From the NCBI GenBank assembly GCA_964527205.1, contig CAZGQG010000004.1, positions 7,023-71,022 of the forward strand: a DNA stretch of 64,000 nucleotides, given 5' to 3'. A program made the translations under genes and the position numbers. The notes below the pieces were generated by a model. That model was given only the letters and a program-made list of their open reading frames with translations. It was not told the origin of the DNA and did not search any database. Of this stretch, positions 3,672-59,878 are shown piece after piece. This stretch comes from an uncultured Tissierellaceae bacterium. Its GTDB lineage: Bacteria > Bacillota > Clostridia > Tissierellales > Tissierellaceae. The first letter of the stretch is position 1, and every line of letters starts with the position of its first letter.

Positions 3672-4448
3672 TTAGCCTACTGGCGTTAAATATATTTTAT
3701 CTGTGTGTTTGTTCCTATCTATTTCAACCTTTAAATCATAGGCCTCCCTAATGTTTTCCTTGGTAATTACATTTTCAGGCTTGCCTCTTCCTATGATCTT
3801 TCCCTGGTTTAGCATTATTATCTCATCTGAATACCTTACTCCCAGGTTTATATCATGGATAACTAGGACTATGGTCATTCCTCTCTCCTTGTTAAGCTCT
3901 CTTAAGAGATTTAGTATTTCTATTTGATGGTTTATATCTAGATGGGCTGTAGGCTCATCCAATAAGATAATAGCAGGATCCTGGGCTATGGCTCTGGCTA
4001 TAAGCACTCTTTGCCTTTCTCCTCCGGATAGTTCCGTTATCATCCTATCCTTTAGATAGAGAGTATTTGTAAGCTCCATGGCTTCTTCTACCATCCTGTA
4101 GTCCTCTCCATTTTCCCTTTCAAATCTGCCCTTGTAGGGGTGCCTTCCCATAAGGACTACTTCCTCTACTGTAAACTCAAAGTCAATGGCAGTATCCTGA
4201 GGTACTAGGGCTATTTTTCTAGCAAGCTCTTTTCTTTTAAAGTTTCTAATATCCCTTCCCTCAATCAATATAGTGGATGATTCTGGGTGGTAAATATTAT
4301 TTAATAGTTTTAAGATGGTTGACTTACCGGAACCATTTGGTCCTACAATACTTAAAAACATACCCTTCTTTATGTTAAAGTGTAAATTTTTAAGAACTGG
4401 CTCATCCTTATATGCAAATTTTAAATTTTTAACTTCTATTGAATTCAT
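3672..4448 (-). CDS. btuD: ABC transporter ATP-binding protein, FepC/BtuD type (corrinoid/iron-siderophore class)
   Basis: 258 aa with Walker A GPNGSGKST, signature LSGGERQRV and Walker B ILLDEP. It is the last gene of an operon headed by a cobalamin riboswitch. Confidence 0.8.
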   Translation of the reverse strand: MNSIEVKNLKFAYKDEPVLKNLHFNIKKGMFLSIVGPNGSGKSTILKLLNNIYHPESSTILIEGRDIRNFKRKELARKIALVPQDTAIDFEFTVEEVVLMGRHPYKGRFERENGEDYRMVEEAMELTNTLYLKDRMITELSGGERQRVLIARAIAQDPAIILLDEPTAHLDINHQIEILNLLRELNKERGMTIVLVIHDINLGVRYSDEIIMLNQGKIIGRGKPENVITKENIREAYDLKVEIDRNKHTDKIYLTPVG

Positions 4449-4482
4449 CTAATCATCTCCACATTAAGCTTTCTATAAGCTC

Positions 4483-5526
4483 TTACTGAGTCTTTGTCTT
4501 TTTTAAAAGATAAAGGAAAAAAGGTCCACCAAATAGTGCTGTTATAATGCCTACTGGTATTTCCACTGGGGAAATTATCGTACGGGCTATGGTATCTGCA
4601 AATATCATAAATATTGCCCCTACCAGAGCTGATGCAGGAAGTAATACCCTGTGGTCCGGTCCTATTATTATTCTCACTATGTGAGGTATTATAAGTCCAA
4701 CAAATCCTATTATTCCAGATACAGAAACTACCATGGCCACCATAAAGGTCCCAAGAATCAGTATATACATCTTGGTCTTTTCCACATTGATTCCCAAACT
4801 CTTTGCAGAATCCTCTCCTGTTAGCATAATGTTTAGGTCTCTGGCAAAGAAATTAATAAGGATAATAGAGCCTATAACTGGTAGGGAAACCCTAATCAGT
4901 GGACTCCATCCCTTTCCTGCCAAGCTTCCCATGGTCCAATAAACTATCTTTGCCATATCATTGCTAAAGATTACCATTAAAAAAGACATTATAGCCGTAA
5001 GGAATTGTCCTATGGCTACCCCTGCCAGTAACAAGGTAGTTACTGGTACCTTGTTCTTTATTCTTGAAATGTTATAGACAGTAAATACTGCAGCTAAAGC
5101 CCCTATAAAGGCAAAGAGGGATATGGAAGACATGCCTAAAAAAGATATGCTAGCCTTTAGGATAATAGCTATAGTTGCACCTAAGGCAGCTCCTGAAGAT
5201 ATTCCTATTACAAAGGGATCTGCCATAGGGTTTTTAAACATACCCTGAAAAGCTGCTCCTGCAATAGCTAAACTTGAGCCAACCAAGACTCCCAAGAGTA
5301 CTCTTGGAAGTCTTATTGACCATATTATTATCTGATGTGTCTCTAAGATATCAGATACATCTATATAATTTTTTAAAATAGGTGTTTTAGATCCAATTAT
5401 CCTAAAAACATCTGTCCATTTAATACTTGCTGTACCTATTACAGAAAATATTCCTATGGACAATACTAATATAAGGGCTAGAAAAACTAATACCCTTCCA
5501 TATTTACCTTTTTTAACCCTTGCCAT
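4483..5526 (-). CDS. btuC: FecCD-family ABC permease (BtuC-like)
   Basis: 347 aa and polytopic, with FecCD-type motifs (RLPRVLLGVLVGSSLAIAGAAFQG, ...GGPFFLYLL). Confidence 0.8.
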   Translation of the reverse strand: MARVKKGKYGRVLVFLALILVLSIGIFSVIGTASIKWTDVFRIIGSKTPILKNYIDVSDILETHQIIIWSIRLPRVLLGVLVGSSLAIAGAAFQGMFKNPMADPFVIGISSGAALGATIAIILKASISFLGMSSISLFAFIGALAAVFTVYNISRIKNKVPVTTLLLAGVAIGQFLTAIMSFLMVIFSNDMAKIVYWTMGSLAGKGWSPLIRVSLPVIGSIILINFFARDLNIMLTGEDSAKSLGINVEKTKMYILILGTFMVAMVVSVSGIIGFVGLIIPHIVRIIIGPDHRVLLPASALVGAIFMIFADTIARTIISPVEIPVGIITALFGGPFFLYLLKKTKTQ

Positions 5527-5538
5527 ATAATCCCTTCT

Positions 5539-6534
5539 CTATTTAAATGCGTCTGGATATATTGCCTTTGCCACTAGTTCCAAAGCATCTACTATTCTTG
5601 GTCCTGGTCTTGATACCATGTCTGCTTCTGTTCCCTTAAATAGGTGTATCCTATCATTTTTTATAGCTGTAAGGGATTCATAACCTGGTCTAGCCTTGAT
5701 TGACTCCTCAGTTATATCATCCATAGCTTGAGATGTAAGGTAAACATCTGTATCTCTTTCTATTAACTGCTCTACATCATACTGAGGATAAGCTCCATCT
5801 GCATCCTCTGCTATATTCTGTGCTCCTGTTAGAGTAATTAACTCATCCATAAAGGAACCTTTTCCAGCTCCCATTAGAGGATCATGCCAGATTTCGTAAA
5901 ATACCTTTACAGACTCCTGGTCCTTTACCTTTTCTACTATTTCATCTTTTTTCTCTAGCATAGCATCTGTAAGTTCTTCTGCCTCTTGGTTTCTTCCTGT
6001 CGCCTTGCCAAGAATTTTTATATTCTCTACTACTTCAGCTATGGACTCTCCTAAAAAGCTTATTACTGTAATTCCTGCACCTTCAAATACTGCAGCATCT
6101 TCTTCATCTATAAAGCCATAGACTAGTACTAGGTCTGGGTCTAATTCTACAACCCTTTCTAAGTTTATTCCCTCATAATCTCCAACTATTTCCTTAGTTG
6201 TAGCTTCTTCTGGATAGTTACAGTTACTTGATACTCCTACAACCTTGTCTCCTAGTCCTAGGGCAAAGATCATTTCCGTAGAACTTGGATTTAATGATAC
6301 TATCTTTTCTGGTTCTTCTTCTATGCTTACCATGTTTCCAAGTCCATCACTTACCTCTACTGGAAAACTTGCAACTTCTTCCTCTTCTTCTAAAACTTCT
6401 TCATCCTGGTCCAAATCCTCTACTGCTCCACTATCTGGCTCCACCACATCTTCTTCTCCTGTACTACAAGCAGCCAGTGAAAATAAGGCTAGTACAATTA
6501 ATGCTAATAATCCTAATCTTTTAAAATTTTTCAT
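5539..6534 (-). CDS. btuF: ABC substrate-binding lipoprotein, periplasmic-binding-protein type 2 (BtuF-like)
   Basis: 331 aa with lipobox LAAC and an acidic linker. It is the first gene downstream of the cobalamin riboswitch. Confidence 0.7.
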   Translation of the reverse strand: MKNFKRLGLLALIVLALFSLAACSTGEEDVVEPDSGAVEDLDQDEEVLEEEEEVASFPVEVSDGLGNMVSIEEEPEKIVSLNPSSTEMIFALGLGDKVVGVSSNCNYPEEATTKEIVGDYEGINLERVVELDPDLVLVYGFIDEEDAAVFEGAGITVISFLGESIAEVVENIKILGKATGRNQEAEELTDAMLEKKDEIVEKVKDQESVKVFYEIWHDPLMGAGKGSFMDELITLTGAQNIAEDADGAYPQYDVEQLIERDTDVYLTSQAMDDITEESIKARPGYESLTAIKNDRIHLFKGTEADMVSRPGPRIVDALELVAKAIYPDAFK

Positions 6535-6577: not shown

Positions 6578-6778
6578 AAAAAAACTTACCCCCAATATTT
6601 AAGGATAAGTCTAAAGACTTCAATCCTCCCTCCGAGATAATATATAGGCAGATATCCTGACTTATGGCTTTTCCTAATTCCAACACCTTCCCAGTTTCCC
6701 AGTGGCCTTTGTTGGTTTCGTACCATTTACAGTAGCGGGGGCTGTAGTGGCTTCTAACCACTTTCCCTTTTAATCCCT
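6578..6778 (-). promoter_or_regulatory. Cobalamin (B12) riboswitch with terminator expression platform
   Basis: The minus strand reads AAAGGGAAAGTGGTTAGAAGCCACTACAGCCCCCGCTACTGTAA...GGCCACTGGGAAACTGGGAAGGTG...AAGTCAGGATATCTGCC (B12 box), then the hairpin acttatcc/gggtaagt plus T7 at 6578-6612. Confidence 0.85.
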
Positions 6779-6854
6779 ATATTTTCATATAGGAAACCTA
6801 TAATCCTATTCAATTACTCCATAATAATATCATATCCAGAGAATATTTTCAATA

Positions 6855-7307
6855 TTATCTAGACTTAAGGTCTTCTATAAGCTCTTTCATTTCCTTTATT
6901 TCTTTTTCCTGGGCCTTGATAATGTCATCTGCTAATTTCCTAACCCTAGGATCTTCTATCTTGGCTCTTCCACTTGTAAGAATAGCTATGGAGTGATGTG
7001 GTATCATTCCCTGCATATAATCAACATCATCTATGGTTGTTTGATTTCTCATTAAATAAAATGAGCTCCCAAATACCAATACGCTAACTAGAAGAATCCC
7101 AATATTTATCTTCTTGTCATCTAGCATATGAAGCATAAATCCCAGCATTACCACTGCCATTACTGCTGTGGAAAGAATCGTCATATATAATCTCATTTCA
7201 CTAAAATATACATGATCTATTTGGTAGGTGTTAAGATACATTACCCCATACATCAATATGGCAGAACTTATTATCATGCCAAAAAATTTCATATAATTCT
7301 TTTTCAT
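6855..7307 (-). CDS. DUF305 family membrane-anchored protein
   Basis: 150 aa with three N-terminal TM helices, then the DUF305-like pattern MIPHHSIAI...DIIKAQEKEIKEMKELI. Confidence 0.6.
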   Translation of the reverse strand: MKKNYMKFFGMIISSAILMYGVMYLNTYQIDHVYFSEMRLYMTILSTAVMAVVMLGFMLHMLDDKKINIGILLVSVLVFGSSFYLMRNQTTIDDVDYMQGMIPHHSIAILTSGRAKIEDPRVRKLADDIIKAQEKEIKEMKELIEDLKSR

Positions 7308-7497: not shown

Positions 7498-7521
7498 GGT
7501 TATTTGATAAATGAATATGAT

Positions 7522-7675
7522 TTGTTAGGTAGAGGCTCCTATACAAACACAGGCTACTGCCCAGAAACGTCCAGAGACGCCAACGGGTATAACAGGAATT
7601 AACCGAAATAAGGTGTTCTTAAGGTAGCTAACAGAAATGTTTACGTTGTATAGTGCTAAAACTCCACGAAAAGAT
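7522..7675 (+). promoter_or_regulatory. M-box (ykoK leader) Mg2+ riboswitch
   Basis: GTTAGGTAGAGGCTCCTATACAAACACAGGCTACTGCCCAGAAACGTCCAGAGACGCCAACGGGTATAACAG...GTGCTAAAACTCCACGAAAAG matches the conserved M-box core. It lies upstream of a Mg2+ P-type ATPase. Confidence 0.85.
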
Positions 7676-7716
7676 CATAATGTGTAAGATTTTTTATACT
7701 TTATGTGGATATTTAG

Positions 7717-7784: not shown

Positions 7785-10427
7785 ATGAAAGATCTATTTA
7801 AAATAGATTATTTTGATCTAGCAAGCCGGCCTATAAAAGAAATCAAGGACTGGTTTGGTGTTAAGGAAGATGGATACAGTGATGAAGAAGCAGCTAGAGT
7901 CAGAGAAGAGTATGGGGATAACGAAATTGATTATGGTACAGAAAAACCCCTATGGAAGATTGTTGTTGAGGCCTACTTTACTCCCTTTACCCTAGTATTA
8001 TTTGCCCTGGCAATTGTTTCTTTCCTAACGGACTTTATATTTGTTCCAGTGGAAGAACAAGAGATCTTTGGACCAATTATTATTATCGTCCTAGTTCTCC
8101 TAAGTGGTACTATGACCTTGATTCAAACCCTAAGATCCAATCGTTCAGTTCAGGAATTGGAATCCATGGTAGAGGTAACATCAGCTATTAAGCGTGATGG
8201 TAAGTACAGTGAAATAAGAACAGAGGACATTGTACTTGGAGACTGGGTTAGACTAAGTGCGGGGGACATGATTCCAGCAGATATTAGACTTGTAGAAACA
8301 AAAGACTTATTTATCTCACAAACCTCCCTTACTGGAGAAAGTTATCCAGTGGAGAAAAGAGCAGAGATAGAAGTCAAAGAAGTTACAAATGAGACAGCCT
8401 ACGAAACCCTAGCCTTTACAGGCACTGAGGTAGTTAGTGGTAGTGCTCAGGGAATTGTAGTAAGAACTGGTAATGACACCTTATTTGGAGATATAGCAGA
8501 TGAACTAGCTCATGAGGAGCCAGAAACTAGTTTTGATATTGGAATTAAAAACACATCTTTATTATTAATTCGTTTTATGATTGTAATGGCCCTAATGGTT
8601 ATTTTAATCAATGGTTTGACCAAGGGAGACTGGCTACAAGCCCTAATCTTTGGAGTTTCCATAGCAGTTGGACTTACTCCGGAAATGCTTCCTATGATTG
8701 TTACAACCAACCTGGTCAAGGGTGCTAACGACATGGCCAAGGAAGGTACTATCGTTCGTAACCTACACGGAATCCAGAACTTTGGAGCTATTAATCTTTT
8801 AGTTACAGATAAGACAGGTACACTTACCCAGGATAATATTATCCTTCAGGCACATTTAAATATAGAAGGCTTTGAAAGTGAAAGAGTTCTTCGCCATGCC
8901 TACTTAAATAGTAAGTATCAAACAGGTCTTGGGAATCTAATGGATGAGGCGATTATAAAGGCTGCTGAGAATGAGCTAGATACAGAAGCTTTTAATTACA
9001 CCAAGGTAGATGAGGTTCCCTTTGACTTTGAGAGACGTCGCTTAAGTGTAGTAGTAGAAGATCCAACTGGAAAAACTCAATTAATTACAAAGGGTGCAGT
9101 GGAAGAAATGCTAGATGCCTGTTCCTTTGTTGATTATGATGGCAAGGTTCATGAACTTACAGATGAACGCCGTGAGTATGTTAGGGATCAAGTAGCAGAT
9201 CTTAATAGAAAGGGCCTCCGTGTTTTAGGGGTCGCCCAAAAAACTAATCCACCTCCAGTAGATGAGTTTTCAGTAAAAGATGAGACCAATATGGTCCTAA
9301 TAGGTTATCTTGCCTTCCTAGATCCTCCAAAGGAATCTACCAAGGAAGCTATAGAAGCCCTAAAGGAACATGCAGTTGATGTTAAGGTAATGACAGGAGA
9401 CACTGAATTAGTAACTATTGCAGTTGCTGAACAGGTTGGGCTTCCTACAGACAGGGTAATATCTGGAGAAAAACTCCTTGATAAGACAGATGATGAATTA
9501 AAGATAATTGTTGAAGAACATGATTTATTTGTTAAATTAAATCCAACTCAGAAGTCTAGATTGGTTGGTATCTTAAGAGGAAATGGTCATGTAGTTGGTT
9601 TCCTAGGGGATGGAATCAATGATTCACCTGCCCTTAGAGCATCAGATGTAGGTATATCAGTGGATAATGCAGTTGATATAGCCAAGGAGTCAGCAGACAT
9701 AATCCTCCTAGAAAAAGACCTAATGATTTTGGAACAAGGTATACTTTCAGGTAGAAAAATATTTGGTAATACAATGAAATACATTAAAGCAACTACAAGT
9801 TCAAACTTTGGTAATGTGTTTTCTGTATTACTTGCCAGTCTTTTCCTACCATTTTTACCTATGTTACCAATTCAATTATTGTTCTTAGGACTTATTTATG
9901 AAATCTCCTCCATGTCTATTCCATGGGACCATATGGATGAAGAATATCTATACCAACCAAAGAAATGGGAGGCAGAGGGAATTAGAAAGTTTATGGTTTG
10001 GTTTGGTCCAACAAGTTCCATCTTTGATATAACTACTTTCTTAATAAGTTTCTTCCTAATTGCACCAGCCGTTGCAGGGGGTCAATTTAATAGTCTAGGA
10101 CCAGAGGCCAAGGCCTTGTTCATAGCTGTATTCCAGTCTTCATGGTTTATAGTTTCCCTATGGACACAGACACTGGTACTTCACACCTTAAGAACACCTA
10201 AGATACCATTCTTAGAGAGTAATGCATCCTTTATAATGACTACCATTACAACAATTGGTATCCTTATAGGGTCAGTGGCTCCTTATACAAAATTAGGTGA
10301 TCTACTAGGACTAGCACCGCTTCCATCCAGTGCATGGTGGATGTTATTGGTAACAGTAATAGCCTATCTAGTACTGGTACAAATAGTTAAAAAGTTCTAT
10401 GTAAGAAGATATGGAGAATTATTATAG
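7785..10427 (+). CDS. mgtA: Magnesium-importing P-type ATPase
   Basis: 880 aa with the phosphorylation motif DKTGTLT, TGES, the GDGINDSPAL hinge and a 10-TM layout. It is preceded by the M-box. Confidence 0.9.
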   Translation: MKDLFKIDYFDLASRPIKEIKDWFGVKEDGYSDEEAARVREEYGDNEIDYGTEKPLWKIVVEAYFTPFTLVLFALAIVSFLTDFIFVPVEEQEIFGPIIIIVLVLLSGTMTLIQTLRSNRSVQELESMVEVTSAIKRDGKYSEIRTEDIVLGDWVRLSAGDMIPADIRLVETKDLFISQTSLTGESYPVEKRAEIEVKEVTNETAYETLAFTGTEVVSGSAQGIVVRTGNDTLFGDIADELAHEEPETSFDIGIKNTSLLLIRFMIVMALMVILINGLTKGDWLQALIFGVSIAVGLTPEMLPMIVTTNLVKGANDMAKEGTIVRNLHGIQNFGAINLLVTDKTGTLTQDNIILQAHLNIEGFESERVLRHAYLNSKYQTGLGNLMDEAIIKAAENELDTEAFNYTKVDEVPFDFERRRLSVVVEDPTGKTQLITKGAVEEMLDACSFVDYDGKVHELTDERREYVRDQVADLNRKGLRVLGVAQKTNPPPVDEFSVKDETNMVLIGYLAFLDPPKESTKEAIEALKEHAVDVKVMTGDTELVTIAVAEQVGLPTDRVISGEKLLDKTDDELKIIVEEHDLFVKLNPTQKSRLVGILRGNGHVVGFLGDGINDSPALRASDVGISVDNAVDIAKESADIILLEKDLMILEQGILSGRKIFGNTMKYIKATTSSNFGNVFSVLLASLFLPFLPMLPIQLLFLGLIYEISSMSIPWDHMDEEYLYQPKKWEAEGIRKFMVWFGPTSSIFDITTFLISFFLIAPAVAGGQFNSLGPEAKALFIAVFQSSWFIVSLWTQTLVLHTLRTPKIPFLESNASFIMTTITTIGILIGSVAPYTKLGDLLGLAPLPSSAWWMLLVTVIAYLVLVQIVKKFYVRRYGELL

Positions 10428-53874: not shown

Positions 53875-55611
53875 CTAAAGAAAGTTAAATCCATGTCCCA
53901 CAAGTTTTTTTGTGTATTCATGCCTAGGATCTGCAAAAATCTTTGATGAACTACCACTTTCTACAATCTCACCCTTAGACATTACATAGACCCTATCTGC
54001 AATCTTTCTAGCAACAGCCAGGTCATGGGTTATGTATAGCATGCTAAAACCCTTTTCATTTTGCAGTTTCTTTAGGAGCCTTAGAATATTGGCTTGGGTA
54101 GAGGGGTCTAGCATAGAGCTTATCTCATCAGCTATTAGGATTTTTGGTCTTACAATTAAACTTCTAGCTAGGGAAAGCCTTTGTCTCTGACCTCCGCTAA
54201 GAGTATAAGACTTTCTATTTAAAAAAATATCATCCTGGGGAAGTTGAAGCTCCCCTAGTATCCCTTTAATCTCATCTTCTAAGGATTCATAGGATGCTTT
54301 TTTTATTATCCTTAAGGGCTCAGCTATAACCTCCCTAATGCTTAGTTTTTCATTTATTGCAGAAAAAGGATCTTGAAAGACCATTTGTATGCCCTCTTCC
54401 ATACTTGTAAAATTATTTCCCTTAAGAAGCTTGTCTTCAAAACTTATCTCTCCCCTATCAGCCCTATCTATACCTGATAGGATGCTGGCAAGAGTAGTTT
54501 TACCGGAGCCTGATTCACCAATCAAGGCCACGACTTCTCCACTTTCTATATGAATATTGCAATCAATGCAAGCTTTAACAGATCTATTCTTAGATTTGTA
54601 GATCTTTGATATGTTTTTTCCTTTTAATATGGTAACTATACCCCCTCGGTGGCAGGCTACTTGTCTGTCCTTACCTATGTATTCCAGTTTAGGTTTTTCC
54701 CTGTCACATATGTCTATACTTTGAGTACATCTATTTTTAAAGGGACAGCCTTTATTTTCACAGTCTACACTTCCATCTGGAATCCCCCACATGTCTCCAA
54801 AAATATTAACTGAGGGAGAAGAATTTAATAGGCCCTTGCTATAGCTGTGCCTAGGGGACCTAAGTAAATCTTCTGTTCCACCCTTTTCCACTAGGGAGCC
54901 TGCGTACATAACACAGACCTTAGATGTAAGTTTTAGAACTGTATCTAATTCGTGGGATATAACTAGGAGGGCAAAGTTGTTTTCCTTATATAAGCTGGAT
55001 AGGAGTTCTATTATCTCAGCCTTTGAAACCATATCTAAGGCTGATGTAGGCTCATCTACAATGAGAAGTTCCGGCTCACAGGCCAAGGCCATGGCAATTA
55101 GGACTCTCTGTCTCATACCACCAGAGAGCTCATGGGGATAAGAGTAAAGCATGCCTAAGTCTAAATTCACCTTTGTAAGTAGTTCCTCAATTCTTTTCTC
55201 CCTTGCTTTTCCAGGCAAGCCTGTGTGCCTTACCAAGACCTCATCTATCTGCTCATGAATAGTTAGGAGAGGATTTAATATATCCAGGCTATTTTGAAAA
55301 ACTATAGCCATTTTTTTCCAGCGCAATCCTTCTAATTCTCTTTTTGTTAATTTATTAATATCCTTGTCCTTAAAATATATATTTCCACTTATATGGGCTG
55401 GACTTTTAATAAGACCCATTATAGCCATTGCCATAGAGGTTTTCCCGCTTCCTGACTCCCCTATTATGCCTAAGCTTTCTCCCTTATTTAAGGATAAACT
55501 TAGATTATTAAGGGCGGAGATCCTCTGATCTTCTAACTTGTATTCCAGTGAAAGATTTTCTATTTTTAATAATGAATTATCCATACAAGACACCCCTTTA
55601 TAGTTTTTCAT
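53875..55611 (-). CDS. Fused double ATPase of a peptide/nickel-type (Opp/Dpp/Nik) ABC transporter
   Basis: 578 aa with two Walker A sites (GESGSGKTS, GESGSGKTT) and two signatures (LSGGMRQRV, LSGGQRQRL). The true start may be the internal ATG at 55584. Confidence 0.8.
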   Translation of the reverse strand: MKNYKGVSCMDNSLLKIENLSLEYKLEDQRISALNNLSLSLNKGESLGIIGESGSGKTSMAMAIMGLIKSPAHISGNIYFKDKDINKLTKRELEGLRWKKMAIVFQNSLDILNPLLTIHEQIDEVLVRHTGLPGKAREKRIEELLTKVNLDLGMLYSYPHELSGGMRQRVLIAMALACEPELLIVDEPTSALDMVSKAEIIELLSSLYKENNFALLVISHELDTVLKLTSKVCVMYAGSLVEKGGTEDLLRSPRHSYSKGLLNSSPSVNIFGDMWGIPDGSVDCENKGCPFKNRCTQSIDICDREKPKLEYIGKDRQVACHRGGIVTILKGKNISKIYKSKNRSVKACIDCNIHIESGEVVALIGESGSGKTTLASILSGIDRADRGEISFEDKLLKGNNFTSMEEGIQMVFQDPFSAINEKLSIREVIAEPLRIIKKASYESLEDEIKGILGELQLPQDDIFLNRKSYTLSGGQRQRLSLARSLIVRPKILIADEISSMLDPSTQANILRLLKKLQNEKGFSMLYITHDLAVARKIADRVYVMSKGEIVESGSSSKIFADPRHEYTKKLVGHGFNFL

Positions 55612-56434
55612 TGAAAATTCTTTCTAAATCTCTACTTATGGCAGAAATAGCAAGAATTAGTAACATAGTAACAAGCAATGGGGCCATTACCCACCATTTC
55701 CAGTAGTCTGTAAAATATATGCCCTTAAAATTAATTCCATGATTTAAAATCAATCCCCAACTTTTAGATGTGGGGTCTCCAAGACCTAGAAAAGATAGGC
55801 CTGCCTCTGCTACAATGGCCTTGCTGGTTATCCTTATAATGGTAATAGATAAGATAGGCATAATTTCTGGCAAGAAATGAGTCCTTAATAAATGAAAAAA
55901 ACCAGCCCCATAACTTTCAGCCATTTTAATATAGGACTCTTCCTTAATAGATATGATCTTAGACCTTATTATTCTAGCAGGAGAAGTCCAAGAAAAAAAG
56001 GCAAGAACCAAAACTATATTTCTAATGCTTGGATCAAAAAAAGCACCTAGCAATATCATCATAGGTAAATCAGGTAGGGCAATCATTATATCTACTAGCC
56101 TCATTATAAGCTTATCAATCAGGCCCCCATGGTAGCCAGCTAGGATACCTAGCAGCGCTCCACCTAGTCCTGCTAATAGGGAAGTAGAAAATCCAATAAT
56201 CACACTTATCCTAGCTCCATAAAAGATTTGAGCTAGGAGGTCAATACCCAGATCATCTGTACCTAGGAGATGTTCTCTACTAGGAGCCTCCAAAGCATTC
56301 CCTGAAGGTACTTTATGGGAATGTGTTGATAGGTAGGGTCCAAATACCCCTATGAATATAATTAAAAATACAAATATAATTCCTAGCCTAGCCCCTAGGG
56401 ATAATCTTTTGAAAGCCTCAATATATTTATTCAT
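55598..56434 (-). CDS. Opp/Dpp/Nik-type ABC permease (DppC/NikC-like)
   Basis: 278 aa BPD-type permease; the N-terminal region matches the OppC pattern. Confidence 0.8.
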   Translation of the reverse strand: MNKYIEAFKRLSLGARLGIIFVFLIIFIGVFGPYLSTHSHKVPSGNALEAPSREHLLGTDDLGIDLLAQIFYGARISVIIGFSTSLLAGLGGALLGILAGYHGGLIDKLIMRLVDIMIALPDLPMMILLGAFFDPSIRNIVLVLAFFSWTSPARIIRSKIISIKEESYIKMAESYGAGFFHLLRTHFLPEIMPILSITIIRITSKAIVAEAGLSFLGLGDPTSKSWGLILNHGINFKGIYFTDYWKWWVMAPLLVTMLLILAISAISRDLERIFNEKL

Positions 56435-57406
56435 TTATCTCACCCTTGGGTCAATTTTTTTATAAAATAAATCTGCCAGTAAATTCATAGTTAAAACTAA
56501 AAAAGCAACAAATAAGAATATACCCTGAATCAATACATAATCCCGAACATTAACAGCCTCTCTCATAAGCCTTCCAAGACCAGGATAATTAAATACATTT
56601 TCTACTAAAATTGCCCCTCCCAATACCCCTCCTAGACTCATAAAGACCCTAGTAATAATAGGGAGGAGAGAGTTTTTTAGCCCATGTTTAAATATAATCC
56701 TTTTAGAACTTAGGCCCTTGGCCAGGGCTGTAGTCATATAGTCCTTTGACATTACACTTATCATACTATTTCTAGCCAATAAGTAGAAAGCTCCCACTTG
56801 AGTCAGTACAAGAGCTAGGCTAGGTAGAAGAGCATGGCGAAGAATATCTAAAAACTTATAAAAGCCATTTTTATAGTCCCCAAAGACTGTCATAGCACCA
56901 GAGAGAGGAAAAAAATCAAAGGGTGCTGCTAAAGTAAATAGCAAGAGTATGGCTATTAGAAAAGAAGGTATCTCAGACAATAAGATCATTATAGGATACA
57001 GGCTTCTGTCAATAATGGAATCCCTATACCAGGCAGACAAGCTACCCAGTATGGATCCTAGGACTGCACTGATAAGCAAGGATCCAAGACTTATAAGCAG
57101 GGTCCATCTAGCCCTTTGTAAAACTAGACTTCTTACACTGGCATTGTAATAAATACTATATCCTAGATCTCCCTTAGCCAATTTCATAAGATAATCCTTG
57201 TATTGTTCCCCTAGGCCCTTATCCATTCCATAGTACTTCTTATACTCTATTATTTGCTCTTCACTATAGTTTTGATGGACCCCTCCCTCTTCAGCTGATA
57301 AAAAAGTAAAAGGATCCCCAGGCATTAGCCTGGGAAGAAAAAAATTTAAAGTTATTATTATATAAAATATTATTAAATATTCTAAGAGTTTCTTCGAAAA
57401 ACTCAT
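56435..57406 (-). CDS. Opp/Dpp/Nik-type ABC permease (DppB/NikB-like)
   Basis: 323 aa with the typical start ...LPRLMPGDP and an EAA loop region (TALAKGLSSKRIIFKHGLKNSLLPI). Confidence 0.8.
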   Translation of the reverse strand: MSFSKKLLEYLIIFYIIITLNFFLPRLMPGDPFTFLSAEEGGVHQNYSEEQIIEYKKYYGMDKGLGEQYKDYLMKLAKGDLGYSIYYNASVRSLVLQRARWTLLISLGSLLISAVLGSILGSLSAWYRDSIIDRSLYPIMILLSEIPSFLIAILLLFTLAAPFDFFPLSGAMTVFGDYKNGFYKFLDILRHALLPSLALVLTQVGAFYLLARNSMISVMSKDYMTTALAKGLSSKRIIFKHGLKNSLLPIITRVFMSLGGVLGGAILVENVFNYPGLGRLMREAVNVRDYVLIQGIFLFVAFLVLTMNLLADLFYKKIDPRVR

Positions 57407-57414
57407 ATGACCAC

Positions 57415-58982
57415 CTATTCCATTTCTACATATGATATTTTGTTGTGTGTTACATTATGATGATCAAAGACATGAGTCCAACCATCATATTTTTCAGGCC
57501 TGTAAAGAGTATAGCCACTGGTATTGTAAAGAGTAAGCATAGGCATTTCTTCAGCTATTATCTCTTGTAGCTTAAATATAAGCTCTTTTCTCTCCTCTGG
57601 ATTTACAGCTGACAACTGCTCCCTGGATACTTGGTCAATTTCAGGATTCACATAGCCTGGTATTTGATTGAATTCAGAGTTGTATAGTTCCCTAAGTGTA
57701 TCAGGATCATTACCCCAACCTCCATTACCAGTTAGTGCCAGTTCATAATCAGAATTTTTTATAGCCCCATCCCTGGTTTTTGTATCTAGACTGGTTATAT
57801 TAAGCTTGATACCTATTTTTTCAAAGTTAATCTTTATAAGTTCTCCAATTCTAAGTTCTTCATTGGAATTTCCTATTAGTAAGGAAAATTCATATTCTTC
57901 TCCTCCTAGGAGCTCCCTTGCTTTTTCCAAATCAAAGTCATATTCCTTTACCCCTTCATTATAGAAGGAATGCTCTAAGGGCAAGTATCCTGGACTAGCT
58001 ATTTTACCAGCTCCCCTTCCTACCTTTTCTATTAATTCTTCCCTATCAATGCCATAGGCCATGGCCTGTCTAAGCTCCTTATCCTTAAGCTCTTCTCTAT
58101 TTTCCATATTAAAAAGGATCTTATAACCCCAAAATCCAGGATTTTCTATTAGCTTATAGCTGGGGTATCCTCATATCTAGACAATAAATCAGGATTAATA
58201 TCAGTAATATCTATATCTCCATTCTCAAAGGCCAGAATAGAATCACTTACAGGAATAAATCGAATTTTATCTGCTGCAGGCCTATAGCCCCAGTAATCTT
58301 CAAATACCTCAAATTCATAGGCTCCCTGCTCTTTCTTATAATCTACTAATCTATAGGGACCAGAGCCTATAACCGCTTCTGGACCATCAAATTTTATAGG
58401 ATCATCTACATCTTCCCAGATATGCTTAGGTATAATAGGTATCTTGCCAAAGCGTCCTAAAAGAGTTGCATCAGGAGCTTCTACCTGGATATGAATAGTA
58501 TGATCATCTATTAAGTTTATTTCTTCTATGTAATCCCTTTGGCTTCTGGCTAGGTCGTCCCTAACAGGTGGATGCTCCTTATAATAATCAAAGGAAAATC
58601 TTACATCCTCTGCTGTCATTTCTTCTCCATCCTGCCATTTTACCCCTTCTCTTATTTTAAAGATATAGGATTTTCCTTCTTCATCTATCTCCCAGCTTTC
58701 TGCTAAAAAAGGGATCAAGCCTTCTTCCCCTCTTTCTAAAAGGCTATCAAATATCAGTCTCATCTTATAATAACCAGGACCTCTAGTATAGTGAACAAAG
58801 GGACTAAGGTAACCCCAATCTCCACCTTGTAAATTTAATATAAGAGAATCTTCTACTATTTTATTGTCTTCCAAAACCAGATCCTTATCCTTTTTTAAAC
58901 TATCCCCTTCTTCACCCCTACAAGAAATTAAAAATATAACACTTATAAATATCATGCTAAGCTTTACCAATCTTTTTTTCAT
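57415..58982 (-). pseudogene. Family-5 (peptide/nickel) substrate-binding lipoprotein, split by a 1-nt frameshift
   Basis: ORFs 58149..58982 (lipobox LISC) and 57415..58107 are collinear halves of one SBP. Adding one G to the G4 run at 58162-58165 gives a continuous ...SRYEDTPSYKLIENPGFWGYKILFNMENRE... (522 aa). Confidence 0.6.
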
Positions 58983-59020
58983 ATTAAACCCCTCTTTCTA
59001 TAAATCAGATTTTGCTAAAC

Positions 59021-59437
59021 TTATCTGTCTTCCTTAGGATTTAAAGCTTCAACATAGGGTTTAATATCTAGTACAGGAGTACCATCCAACATATCTACTC
59101 CTTCAAATTCTATATTATTTCCATCTATTCTTGTAAACTTTACAATTGATTGACCAATCCCATTCGGTCTGTTAGGAGATCTAGTGGCAAATACTCCTCT
59201 AATCTCATCTCTTCCATGGGGCTTTAGCTTGAGAGGCACATCCTTTTTTGATTTATGAAAGTGAAAAAGTACCACTCCATAGCTTCCTTCTTCAATTCCA
59301 TCAATCCCATCTAAATACTTAGGTAGGATTTCAATTACTGCCTTCTTATCCTTATTTAAAACACTTTGCCTAGGTAAGTCCTTCCTATCCTTTACTCCTG
59401 ATTTAATATAGCCTATTGATTCCATTCTTATATCCAT
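59021..59437 (-). CDS. TrmO/YaeB (UPF0066) family protein
   Basis: The motif run ...SIGYIKSG...VFATRSPNRPNGIGQSIVKF...GVDMLDGTPVLDIKPY is typical of TsaA/TrmO N-terminal domains. Start set at ATG 59435-59437 after AGGAGA; the track N-terminal extension overlaps the riboswitch terminator. Confidence 0.7.
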   Translation of the reverse strand: MDIRMESIGYIKSGVKDRKDLPRQSVLNKDKKAVIEILPKYLDGIDGIEEGSYGVVLFHFHKSKKDVPLKLKPHGRDEIRGVFATRSPNRPNGIGQSIVKFTRIDGNNIEFEGVDMLDGTPVLDIKPYVEALNPKEDR

Positions 59438-59483
59438 TTCATCTCTCCTATACTTTATTTTTAAAATACAAATACTAGCTAAA

Positions 59484-59512
59484 TAAAAAACCCAAACCTT
59501 GAAGTTTGGGCT
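59484..59512 (-). terminator. Expression-platform terminator of the second B12 riboswitch
   Basis: cccaaac-cttgaa-gtttggg followed by T6 on the minus strand. Confidence 0.65.
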
Positions 59513-59584
59513 AGAATTAACAAATAGTATAGACAAAAATATACAAGTGGACAAAGCACTATAATGTTAAGCTTCCTTCCCTCC

Positions 59585-59745
59585 GAAGGTTCTACTATAT
59601 ATCTACTCTAGGCAGGTCTCCTGACTTATGATATTTTCTATCAACACCTTCCCAGATAAAATCCAGTGGTTTCTGTTGACCCTAAATCACTTACAGTAGC
59701 GGGGGCTGTATAGGACTTTAACCTATTTCCCTTTTAATAAAACCT
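59585..59745 (-). promoter_or_regulatory. Cobalamin (B12) riboswitch, second copy
   Basis: The minus strand reads AAAAGGGAAATAGGTTAAAGTCCTATACAGCCCCCGCTACTGTAAG...AACCACTGGATTTTATCTGGGAAGGTG...AAGTCAGGAGACCTGCC, which is a near-consensus B12 box. Confidence 0.85.
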
Positions 59746-59878
59746 AGAATAGTCTTATTTAGTTATCATATGTATAATATCATATTGTTATATTTAATAC
59801 AATATAATCTATCTCTTATTTCTTTCAGGACAAGAATCCTAGCCTATGCTATAATGGAAGAAAATAGGAGGTGCTTTA

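Follow-up and report, generated by a model that had tools for sequence, protein, structure and literature searches.

NikABCDE systems preceded by a B12 riboswitch are predicted cobalt transporters in C. tetani and D. hafniense (Zhang 2009, PMC2667541, citing Rodionov 2006), and CbtJKL of S. meliloti is a riboswitch-controlled ABC (ATP-binding cassette) importer of cobalt (PMC7689651). Genes for FmdE (PF02663) lie beside those of metal-ion transporters, and FmdE-UPF0066 fusions exist (PMC2954224). In the TrmO/UPF0066 family, E. coli TrmO requires a C-terminal DPRxxY domain for the formation of N6-methyl-N6-threonylcarbamoyladenosine (m6t6A); archaeal single-domain homologues are without it, and m6t6A is undetected in archaea (Kimura 2014, PMC4132733). 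Here we analyse an operon in a 64,000-nucleotide stretch of DNA (the window) from an uncultured Tissierellaceae bacterium (assembly GCA_964527205.1, contig CAZGQG010000004.1), where a cobalamin riboswitch precedes, on the reverse strand, the gene of a small TsaA/YaeB-like protein and the genes of a peptide/nickel-type ABC importer. We read the operon as encoding an importer of chelated cobalt that B12 represses, together with a cytoplasmic helper that depends on S-adenosylmethionine (SAM) and is not TrmO, and we give this reading, taken whole, an even chance of being right.

Riboswitch, TsaA-like gene and transporter genes

An Rfam scan of the whole window places a cobalamin riboswitch aptamer (RF00174) at 59594-59762 (-), with 110.8 bits against a gathering score of 31.5 (E 6.6e-27) and a match that spans the model end to end (positions 1-189). 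A preliminary description of this DNA had located a riboswitch at 59585-59745 and proposed the Rfam model as its test, which the leader passes. The expression platform holds an intrinsic terminator (59480-59512, -), recognised from sequence, fold and a terminator scan, 81 nucleotides past the aptamer and 51 nucleotides ahead of the ATG. Its G+C-containing stem of 10 basepairs (59512-59489, -; AGCCCAAAC..GTTTGGGTT) is followed by a T-run and agrees with the terminator first described at 59484-59512. With high confidence, these sequence features point to a genuine cobalamin RNA switch, one of three in the genome. No regulator gene for a NikR-type control is seen in the operon, and the cobalamin riboswitch stands in its place.

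The first gene (59021-59437, -) starts at the ATG at 59437, behind the ribosome-binding site TAGGAGAG, and not at the upstream TTG of the mechanically called open reading frame. It encodes 138 amino acids that consist of a TrmO_N domain only, the class VIII SAM-binding fold, with 121 bits for Pfam PF01980 and 132 bits for NCBIfam TIGR00104 (cut-off 93.25), in keeping with the family to which it had first been assigned. The residues Q24, R86, D115 and K126, which would contact SAM, are invariant across 25 relatives and align with Q22, R82, D111 and K122 of AF_0241; the reference residues in E. coli TrmO are Q25, R92, D125 and K136. The protein stops 10 residues past the conserved K126-P-Y and 2 residues beyond the domain envelope, and the DPRxxY domain is absent. 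Among solved structures, the single-domain archaeal AF_0241 (PDB 2NV4), which is SAM-bound, comes closest, and a Foldseek search with an AlphaFold model retrieves solely YaeB/TrmO structures.

A maximum-likelihood tree inferred from 129 TrmO_N domains gathers every protein that has the long C-terminal domain (true TrmO) into one starred clade (54 rows, 100/90). Proteins with a tail of about 25 residues are placed elsewhere, the FmdE-linked archaea and some Clostridia form a clade of their own, and the window protein belongs to a tail-less Firmicutes clade (18 rows, 83/83) with a core of 12 rows (93/90). Domain net charge and isoelectric point, which we also tried as discriminators, do not separate the clades. 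The absent DPRxxY domain and the separate clade make it improbable that the small protein is a tRNA TrmO, and for the TsaA-like Firmicutes clade the name is probably wrong. Public records give this name to single-domain proteins because TIGR00104 passes them (132 versus 93 bits).

The transporter genes that follow have intergenic distances from a gap of 38 nucleotides to an overlap of 14. The pair of BPD_transp_1 permeases and the fused ATPase, which carries oligo_HPY, identify an importer of the PepT (peptide/nickel) family. Permease 1, OppB/NikB-like (56435-57406, -; Pfam 149.7 bits), has the Opp2B nickel permease as its best NCBIfam match, with 243 bits, under the cut-off of 350. Permease 2, OppC/NikC-like (55598-56434, -; Pfam 77 bits), abuts it with a gap of 0 nucleotides, and its NCBIfam matches, Opp4C and Opp2C, are each under cut-off. 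The double ATPase, OppD/F- or NikD/E-like (53875-55611, -; two ABC_tran domains plus oligo_HPY; orthologues of 552-578 amino acids), overlaps permease 2 by 14 nucleotides. These three genes are intact, whereas that of the family-5 substrate-binding lipoprotein is split across two frames. Its N-terminal part of 277 amino acids (58149-58982, -; SBP_bac_5 150 bits, profile positions 2-191) runs up to an apparent frameshift at a C4 run near 58163-58166, and the C-terminal part of 230 amino acids (57415-58107, -; profile positions 210-365) continues in another frame. At the split, one frame of the window reads ..SRYEDTPAIS-stop and the next YPSYKLIENPGFWGY, the latter in agreement with orthologous binding proteins, which are uninterrupted there (...KYQEDPSYKIVE..). 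The split would fit the loss of one base from the C4 run, either as a real mutation or as an assembly error. The N-terminal part is 58% identical to its intact orthologue in locus L116 (loci used for comparison are numbered with an L).

A metagenome contig from another sample (L142; ENA ERZ12298774) is 98.4% identical to the window, with a TsaA protein 99% identical. It joins window position 58641 to 53962 at a short imperfect repeat, with the loss of 4.7 kb from early in the binding-protein gene through the end of the ATPase gene. A stub of the binding-protein gene is left, and the riboswitch, the TsaA-like gene and sodA are retained. Together with the apparent frameshift, this deletion suggests that cells of this lineage can do without the transporter but hold on to the riboswitch-TsaA pair. 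The preliminary description thus had the riboswitch, the terminator, the TrmO-like gene and the type of importer right as far as permeases and ATPase are concerned, and erred in calling the transporter complete, as its binding protein is frameshifted here and the sister strain has lost it.

Genomic contexts of the TsaA-like clade and of the transporter family

We collected 17 distinct loci of the TsaA-like clade, including the window; related genomes among them are not independent, and the association counts carry no p-value. The gene stands directly ahead of a window-type transporter in four (the window, L116, L117 and L144), so the linkage whose conservation the preliminary description wanted surveyed does recur, and L144 also has the order of the window, with riboswitch, TsaA and transporter in succession. 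In five others (L112; L113, Desulfitobacterium hafniense; L115, Alkalibaculum; L135; L136) its neighbour is an importer that combines an FMN_bind-Peripla_BP_2 fusion with a FecCD permease and an ATPase. One locus, L118 (8671-11070 and 13626-13735), has a riboswitch, the TsaA-like gene and a DrrA/DrrB-type, exporter-like ABC pair in this order; a few kb further downstream it also carries a stand-alone FMN_bind protein and a thiamine pyrophosphate riboswitch with thiC. An ABC transporter of one of these three types thus adjoins the clade gene in 10 of the 17 loci.

Eight of the 17 loci have a cobalamin riboswitch next to the TsaA-like gene: ahead of it in the window, L144, L118 and L136, and starting 13-50 nucleotides past its stop codon, before the importer, in L112, L113, L115 and L135. 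With an nhmmer profile made from 12 riboswitches, none turned up beside TrmO_N genes of other clades (0 of about 110 loci), nor did additional weak riboswitches upstream of L026, L116, L117, L145 and L146. Because the eight cases span at least three architectures, the association does not come from one inherited arrangement. The distribution of the gene is patchy: a close homologue occurs in only five others of 399 sampled genomes of the same class, and in 0 of 14 genomes of the same family and order. A search of metagenome contigs with the TsaA-like protein alone returned 9 distant, short loci, and a search of genome contigs, with mostly Pseudomonas TrmO among the matches listed, was used as a negative control. 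In L113 (8521-8976), L115 (8538-8993), L135 (5067-5519) and L129 (6868-7431), the TsaA-like gene has a MarR-family regulator gene immediately ahead of it; in the first three, where the riboswitch comes after TsaA, TsaA is probably under MarR and not B12 control.

The importers with the FMN_bind fusion have a cobalamin riboswitch ahead of them in all six loci (L112, L113, L115, L135, L136 and L155). Their binding protein joins an extracytoplasmic FMN_bind domain to a siderophore-type Peripla_BP_2, and its binding domains resemble ferrichrome-/siderophore-type binders, not BtuF. Its flavin domain hints at a reduction that takes place extracellularly. The binding-protein gene of L155 (genome G235) is interrupted by stop codons.

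The transporter family gives a second view of the same operon position. Read through its frameshift, the binding protein has 414 relatives at E <1e-60, all intact, of 505-545 amino acids and widespread in Clostridia. We compared 16 operons, again including the window. The accessory gene is TsaA-like in four of them and a class I SAM methyltransferase of about 275 amino acids in five, placed ahead of the transporter in L145 (Acetivibrio saccincola), L147 (Alkaliphilus metalliredigens QYMF), L149 and L151 and behind it in L154. In six operons (L026, L148, L149, L150, L151 and L153) an FmdE-domain protein comes first, and in L147 FmdE lies 2 kb off. L152 has no accessory gene, and L146 only a remnant of a methyltransferase C-terminus; counting that remnant, a class I methyltransferase or FmdE occurs in 11 of the 12 operons without TsaA-like protein. 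The class I enzymes are mutually homologous (E 1e-33 to 1e-60), and their best NCBIfam matches, the corrinoid-protein-associated CpaM, BchM/ChlM and CbiT, are weak and far under cut-offs. Three of the 16 operons have a riboswitch. L147 is one that runs riboswitch, class I methyltransferase, transporter, which is the layout of the window with another methyltransferase fold.

Two unrelated folds at one operon position are the usual signature of non-orthologous displacement, and the interchange of TsaA-like protein, class I methyltransferase and FmdE looks like such a case. Since an unrelated SAM-binding fold fills its position, we read the TsaA-like protein as a putative working methyltransferase tied to the transporter. 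The preliminary description had left open why a TrmO-fold protein heads such an operon, and had offered a methyltransferase or a chaperone; the shared position speaks more for a methyltransferase than for a protein that acts purely as a chaperone. Two operons of the family have further features. In the L146 operon (Desulfosporosinus youngiae), at about 5850-6000, the spacer ahead of the binding-protein gene encodes a peptide ending ..KIEARITWMYWKI, which looks like the C-terminus of a class I methyltransferase, a remnant of a lost first gene; an intact homologous methyltransferase lies 5 kb off, beside a flavodoxin-like gene. In L026 (8906-10312; record of Clostridium botulinum ATCC 25763), FmdE comes first in the orthologous transporter operon, and a divergent, truncated TsaA-like frame (residues 31-134 only) lies 600 nucleotides off; no riboswitch was found there.

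The genome (assembly of 1.97 Mb, 98% complete) holds two further cobalamin riboswitches. One lies in the window at 6630-6816 (-; 107.9 bits), and downstream of it (3672-6534, -) follow a BtuF-type binding protein, on which the BtuF model scores 113 bits, a FecCD permease, an ATPase and then a GNAT acetyltransferase; this locus probably provides the organism with its corrinoid importer. The other, on contig C5, precedes a cbi operon that includes CbiMNQO. With this operon, CbiMNQO and the BtuF-type importer, the organism makes B12 and has a dedicated cobalt transporter as well as a corrinoid-type importer. CobA-type and PduO-type adenosyltransferases are both present. The TsaA-like gene is the sole TrmO_N gene in the genome, where we found neither FmdE nor PF02965, the SAM-binding activation domain of MetH. 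Two other roles for the TsaA-like protein were set aside: a SAM-dependent corrinoid adenosyltransferase has no gap to fill beside the CobA-type and PduO-type enzymes, and reactivation of MetH is at odds with repression by B12, and PF02965 was not found. Near the second riboswitch the window also has an M-box magnesium riboswitch (7514-7681, +; 143.5 bits) ahead of an MgtA-like P-type ATPase of 880 amino acids (7785-10427, +), and between the two riboswitches sits a DUF305 protein (6855-7307, -).

Proposed mechanism and alternatives

We propose that when adenosylcobalamin is plentiful the aptamer would fold, the terminator would form and transcription would end before the first gene, and that when B12 is scarce the operon would be transcribed. 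The ABC importer would then most likely bring in cobalt on a small organic chelator. The TsaA-like protein would be a cytoplasmic SAM-binding accessory enzyme of metal-chelate importers. Its most likely task would be to methylate the chelator or cargo once imported, or to process it in some other way that lets the metal be passed on. This helper role would fall, in other species, to an unrelated class I SAM methyltransferase, to an FmdE metal-binding protein or to both. Our confidence differs between the parts: it is high that the small protein is not TrmO, moderate that it is coupled to the importer, low to moderate that the cargo is a cobalt chelate, and low for the exact chemistry. Cobalt is proposed because B12 control is combined with the precedents of the B12-preceded Nik systems (PMC2667541) and of CbtJKL (PMC7689651). 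A chelate is preferred to a corrinoid because the FMN_bind-containing binding proteins beside the TsaA clade are siderophore-type, not BtuF-type. The riboswitch alone does not fix the substrate, because only 3 of the 16 family operons are B12-controlled. The preliminary description had taken B12 control to imply cobalt or a corrinoid rather than peptides; a cobalt-related cargo is indeed the best-precedented choice, but the implication is loosened by this low proportion and by the CbiMNQO and BtuF-type systems that the genome already has.

Several findings weigh against this proposal. CbiMNQO already serves cobalt in this genome, and as so few operons of the transporter family have a riboswitch, cobalt is maybe not the general cargo of the family. 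The binding protein passes neither the curated model for NikA (TIGR02294; 88 bits for the N-terminal and 39 bits for the C-terminal half, cut-off 393) nor that for CntA (87.7 bits, cut-off 800), and the solved structures nearest to it include Lmo0135 and DppA no less than NikA. On the side of the small protein, its score lies above the NCBI equivalog cut-off for TrmO, tRNA methylation is to our knowledge the sole proven chemistry of the TrmO_N fold, and the AlphaFold model is poor (predicted local distance difference test, pLDDT, 65) and supports the fold assignment only. Seven of the 17 clade loci have neither riboswitch nor transporter nearby, and in the four where the riboswitch follows TsaA (L112, L113, L115 and L135) the gene lies outside B12 regulation. 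The decay of the transporter also means that in this cell the small protein may be working with another system.

Beyond the window, we suggest tentatively that TsaA, the L147-type methyltransferases and FmdE together make up an unrecognised cytoplasmic step in the handling of cobalt and nickel. Methylation of the chelator or of the complex would free the metal or mark the ligand for export, as reduction or hydrolysis does for siderophores, and the riboswitch would recruit this step into the B12 regulon. We regard this generalisation as possible, though on balance we would not bet on it.

Among the alternatives, a corrinoid or corrinoid precursor as cargo survives best, and we still consider it unlikely. 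The TsaA-like protein or the class I methyltransferase would then methylate the reduced cobalt, the macrocycle or the lower ligand before the molecule joins the cofactor pool. The adjacency of the riboswitch, in 8 of 17 loci, is the strongest signal for the TsaA clade, and the FMN_bind/FecCD importers beside it are riboswitch-controlled in 6 of 6; a haem-named family-5 binding protein (HbpA) is among the solved relatives of the binding protein, and the class I enzymes have their best matches, weak as they are, in enzymes such as CpaM and CbiT. On the other side, the genome has a separate BtuF-type importer with a riboswitch of its own, the FMN_bind-containing binding proteins resemble siderophore binders rather than BtuF, and most Nik-type operons of the family are without a riboswitch and have the metal-binding FmdE instead. 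With both adenosyltransferases present, no processing step is obviously missing.

The presence of an exporter-type ABC pair in L118 brings up another explanation, that the TsaA-like protein uses SAM to make or finish a secreted cobalt/nickel metallophore, exported by a pump like that DrrAB-type pair and recaptured by the Nik-type and FecCD-type importers. The TsaA-like protein is linked to importers and to an exporter-type ABC under the same kind of riboswitch, the layout recalls the staphylopine cnt locus, where a SAM-using enzyme comes with a Nik-type importer and an exporter, the best NCBIfam matches of the binding protein include CntA, if under its cut-off, and the residues that contact the amino and carboxyl groups of SAM are invariant. 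A single protein of some 135 amino acids is unlikely to be the sole builder of a chelator, however, and no other biosynthetic genes are conserved nearby. The exporter is absent from most loci, and FmdE can occupy this operon position alone, as would be expected of cytoplasmic metal handling rather than of biosynthesis. We judge a metallophore role to be quite improbable.

That the protein is an ordinary TrmO tRNA methyltransferase, placed fortuitously beside riboswitch and transporter, we consider very doubtful. It is the sole TrmO_N protein of the genome, its score exceeds the TIGR00104 cut-off, and its homologues are named TrmO in their source records. Opposed to this are the missing DPRxxY domain, required in E. 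coli (PMC4132733), the separate clade in the tree, the repeated and independent juxtaposition with riboswitches and three types of transporter, the non-homologous methyltransferase at the same position of the same type of operon, and the 14 genomes of the same family and order in which the gene was not found. Equally doubtful, finally, is a B12-sparing response that involves no metal, in which a peptide or a methyl-group-related nutrient would be taken up once B12-dependent metabolism fails and would serve the methyltransferase as substrate: B12 riboswitches do control B12-independent isozymes, and the nearest solved relatives of the binding protein include the peptide- or cysteine-associated binders Lmo0135 and DppA, but the FmdE partners, the siderophore-type FecCD importers beside the TsaA clade and the riboswitch-less majority of the family would be left unexplained, and PF02965 was not found in the genome.

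Comparison with known systems

If the proposal of a B12-repressed chelate importer with a SAM-dependent helper is correct, it adds a new kind of chemistry to the trace-metal acquisition of anaerobes, and a function for the single-domain YaeB proteins, left open by Kimura et al. 2014 (PMC4132733). Thousands of short-type proteins carry the name TrmO in public databases by way of the curated model, and on the present evidence at least one Firmicutes clade of them probably belongs to the B12/metal-uptake regulon and not to the tRNA enzymes. Two unrelated SAM methyltransferase folds at one position also make a testable claim, that some nickel/cobalt-type importers need methylation. A search of the literature on TsaA-like/UPF0066 proteins with cobalamin, and on FmdE with transporters and methyltransferases, found no functional study.

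The core of the operon, a B12 riboswitch with a Nik-type importer, is of a kind already predicted in 2006. The operon shares with the B12-switched Nik-type systems and CbtJKL a cobalamin riboswitch (RF00174) immediately ahead of an ABC importer that belongs to the peptide/nickel family and depends on a binding protein, with a B12-producing anaerobe as host. It differs in its apparently frameshifted binding protein, and in its first gene: in the descriptions of those systems that we read, no TsaA-like or other SAM methyltransferase stands at the head of the operon. What is new here is that the first gene is TsaA-like, that its clade is linked to riboswitches and that a class I methyltransferase can take its place.

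With E. coli YaeB/TrmO the small protein shares the N-terminal beta-barrel, the four SAM-contact residues and a pass of TIGR00104; it differs in having no DPRxxY domain, in its separate clade, in its riboswitch and transporter contexts and in being closest to AF_0241. FmdE binds metal through an FHGHxC motif. It stands first in 6 of the 16 operons compared from the transporter family of the window, and one TsaA clade close to that of the window protein is also linked to FmdE, whereas the genome of the window has no FmdE; here it is the gene of the TsaA-like protein, a putative SAM methyltransferase, that comes first in the importer operon.

Staphylopine is handled by the enzymes CntKLM, the Nik-type importer CntABCDF and the exporter CntE, and siderophores are processed by enzymes such as the reductase FhuF and the esterase Fes. 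We know of no characterised precedent for methylation as a chelate-processing step. The genes of the operon have no homology to CntK, CntL or CntM, and its binding protein fails the CntA model. In outline the operon is nevertheless like both the Cnt and the FhuF/Fes systems, in that a putative chelate importer is encoded with a candidate cytoplasmic enzyme for making or processing the chelator, and it shares with Cnt the placement of a SAM-using enzyme beside a Nik-type importer.

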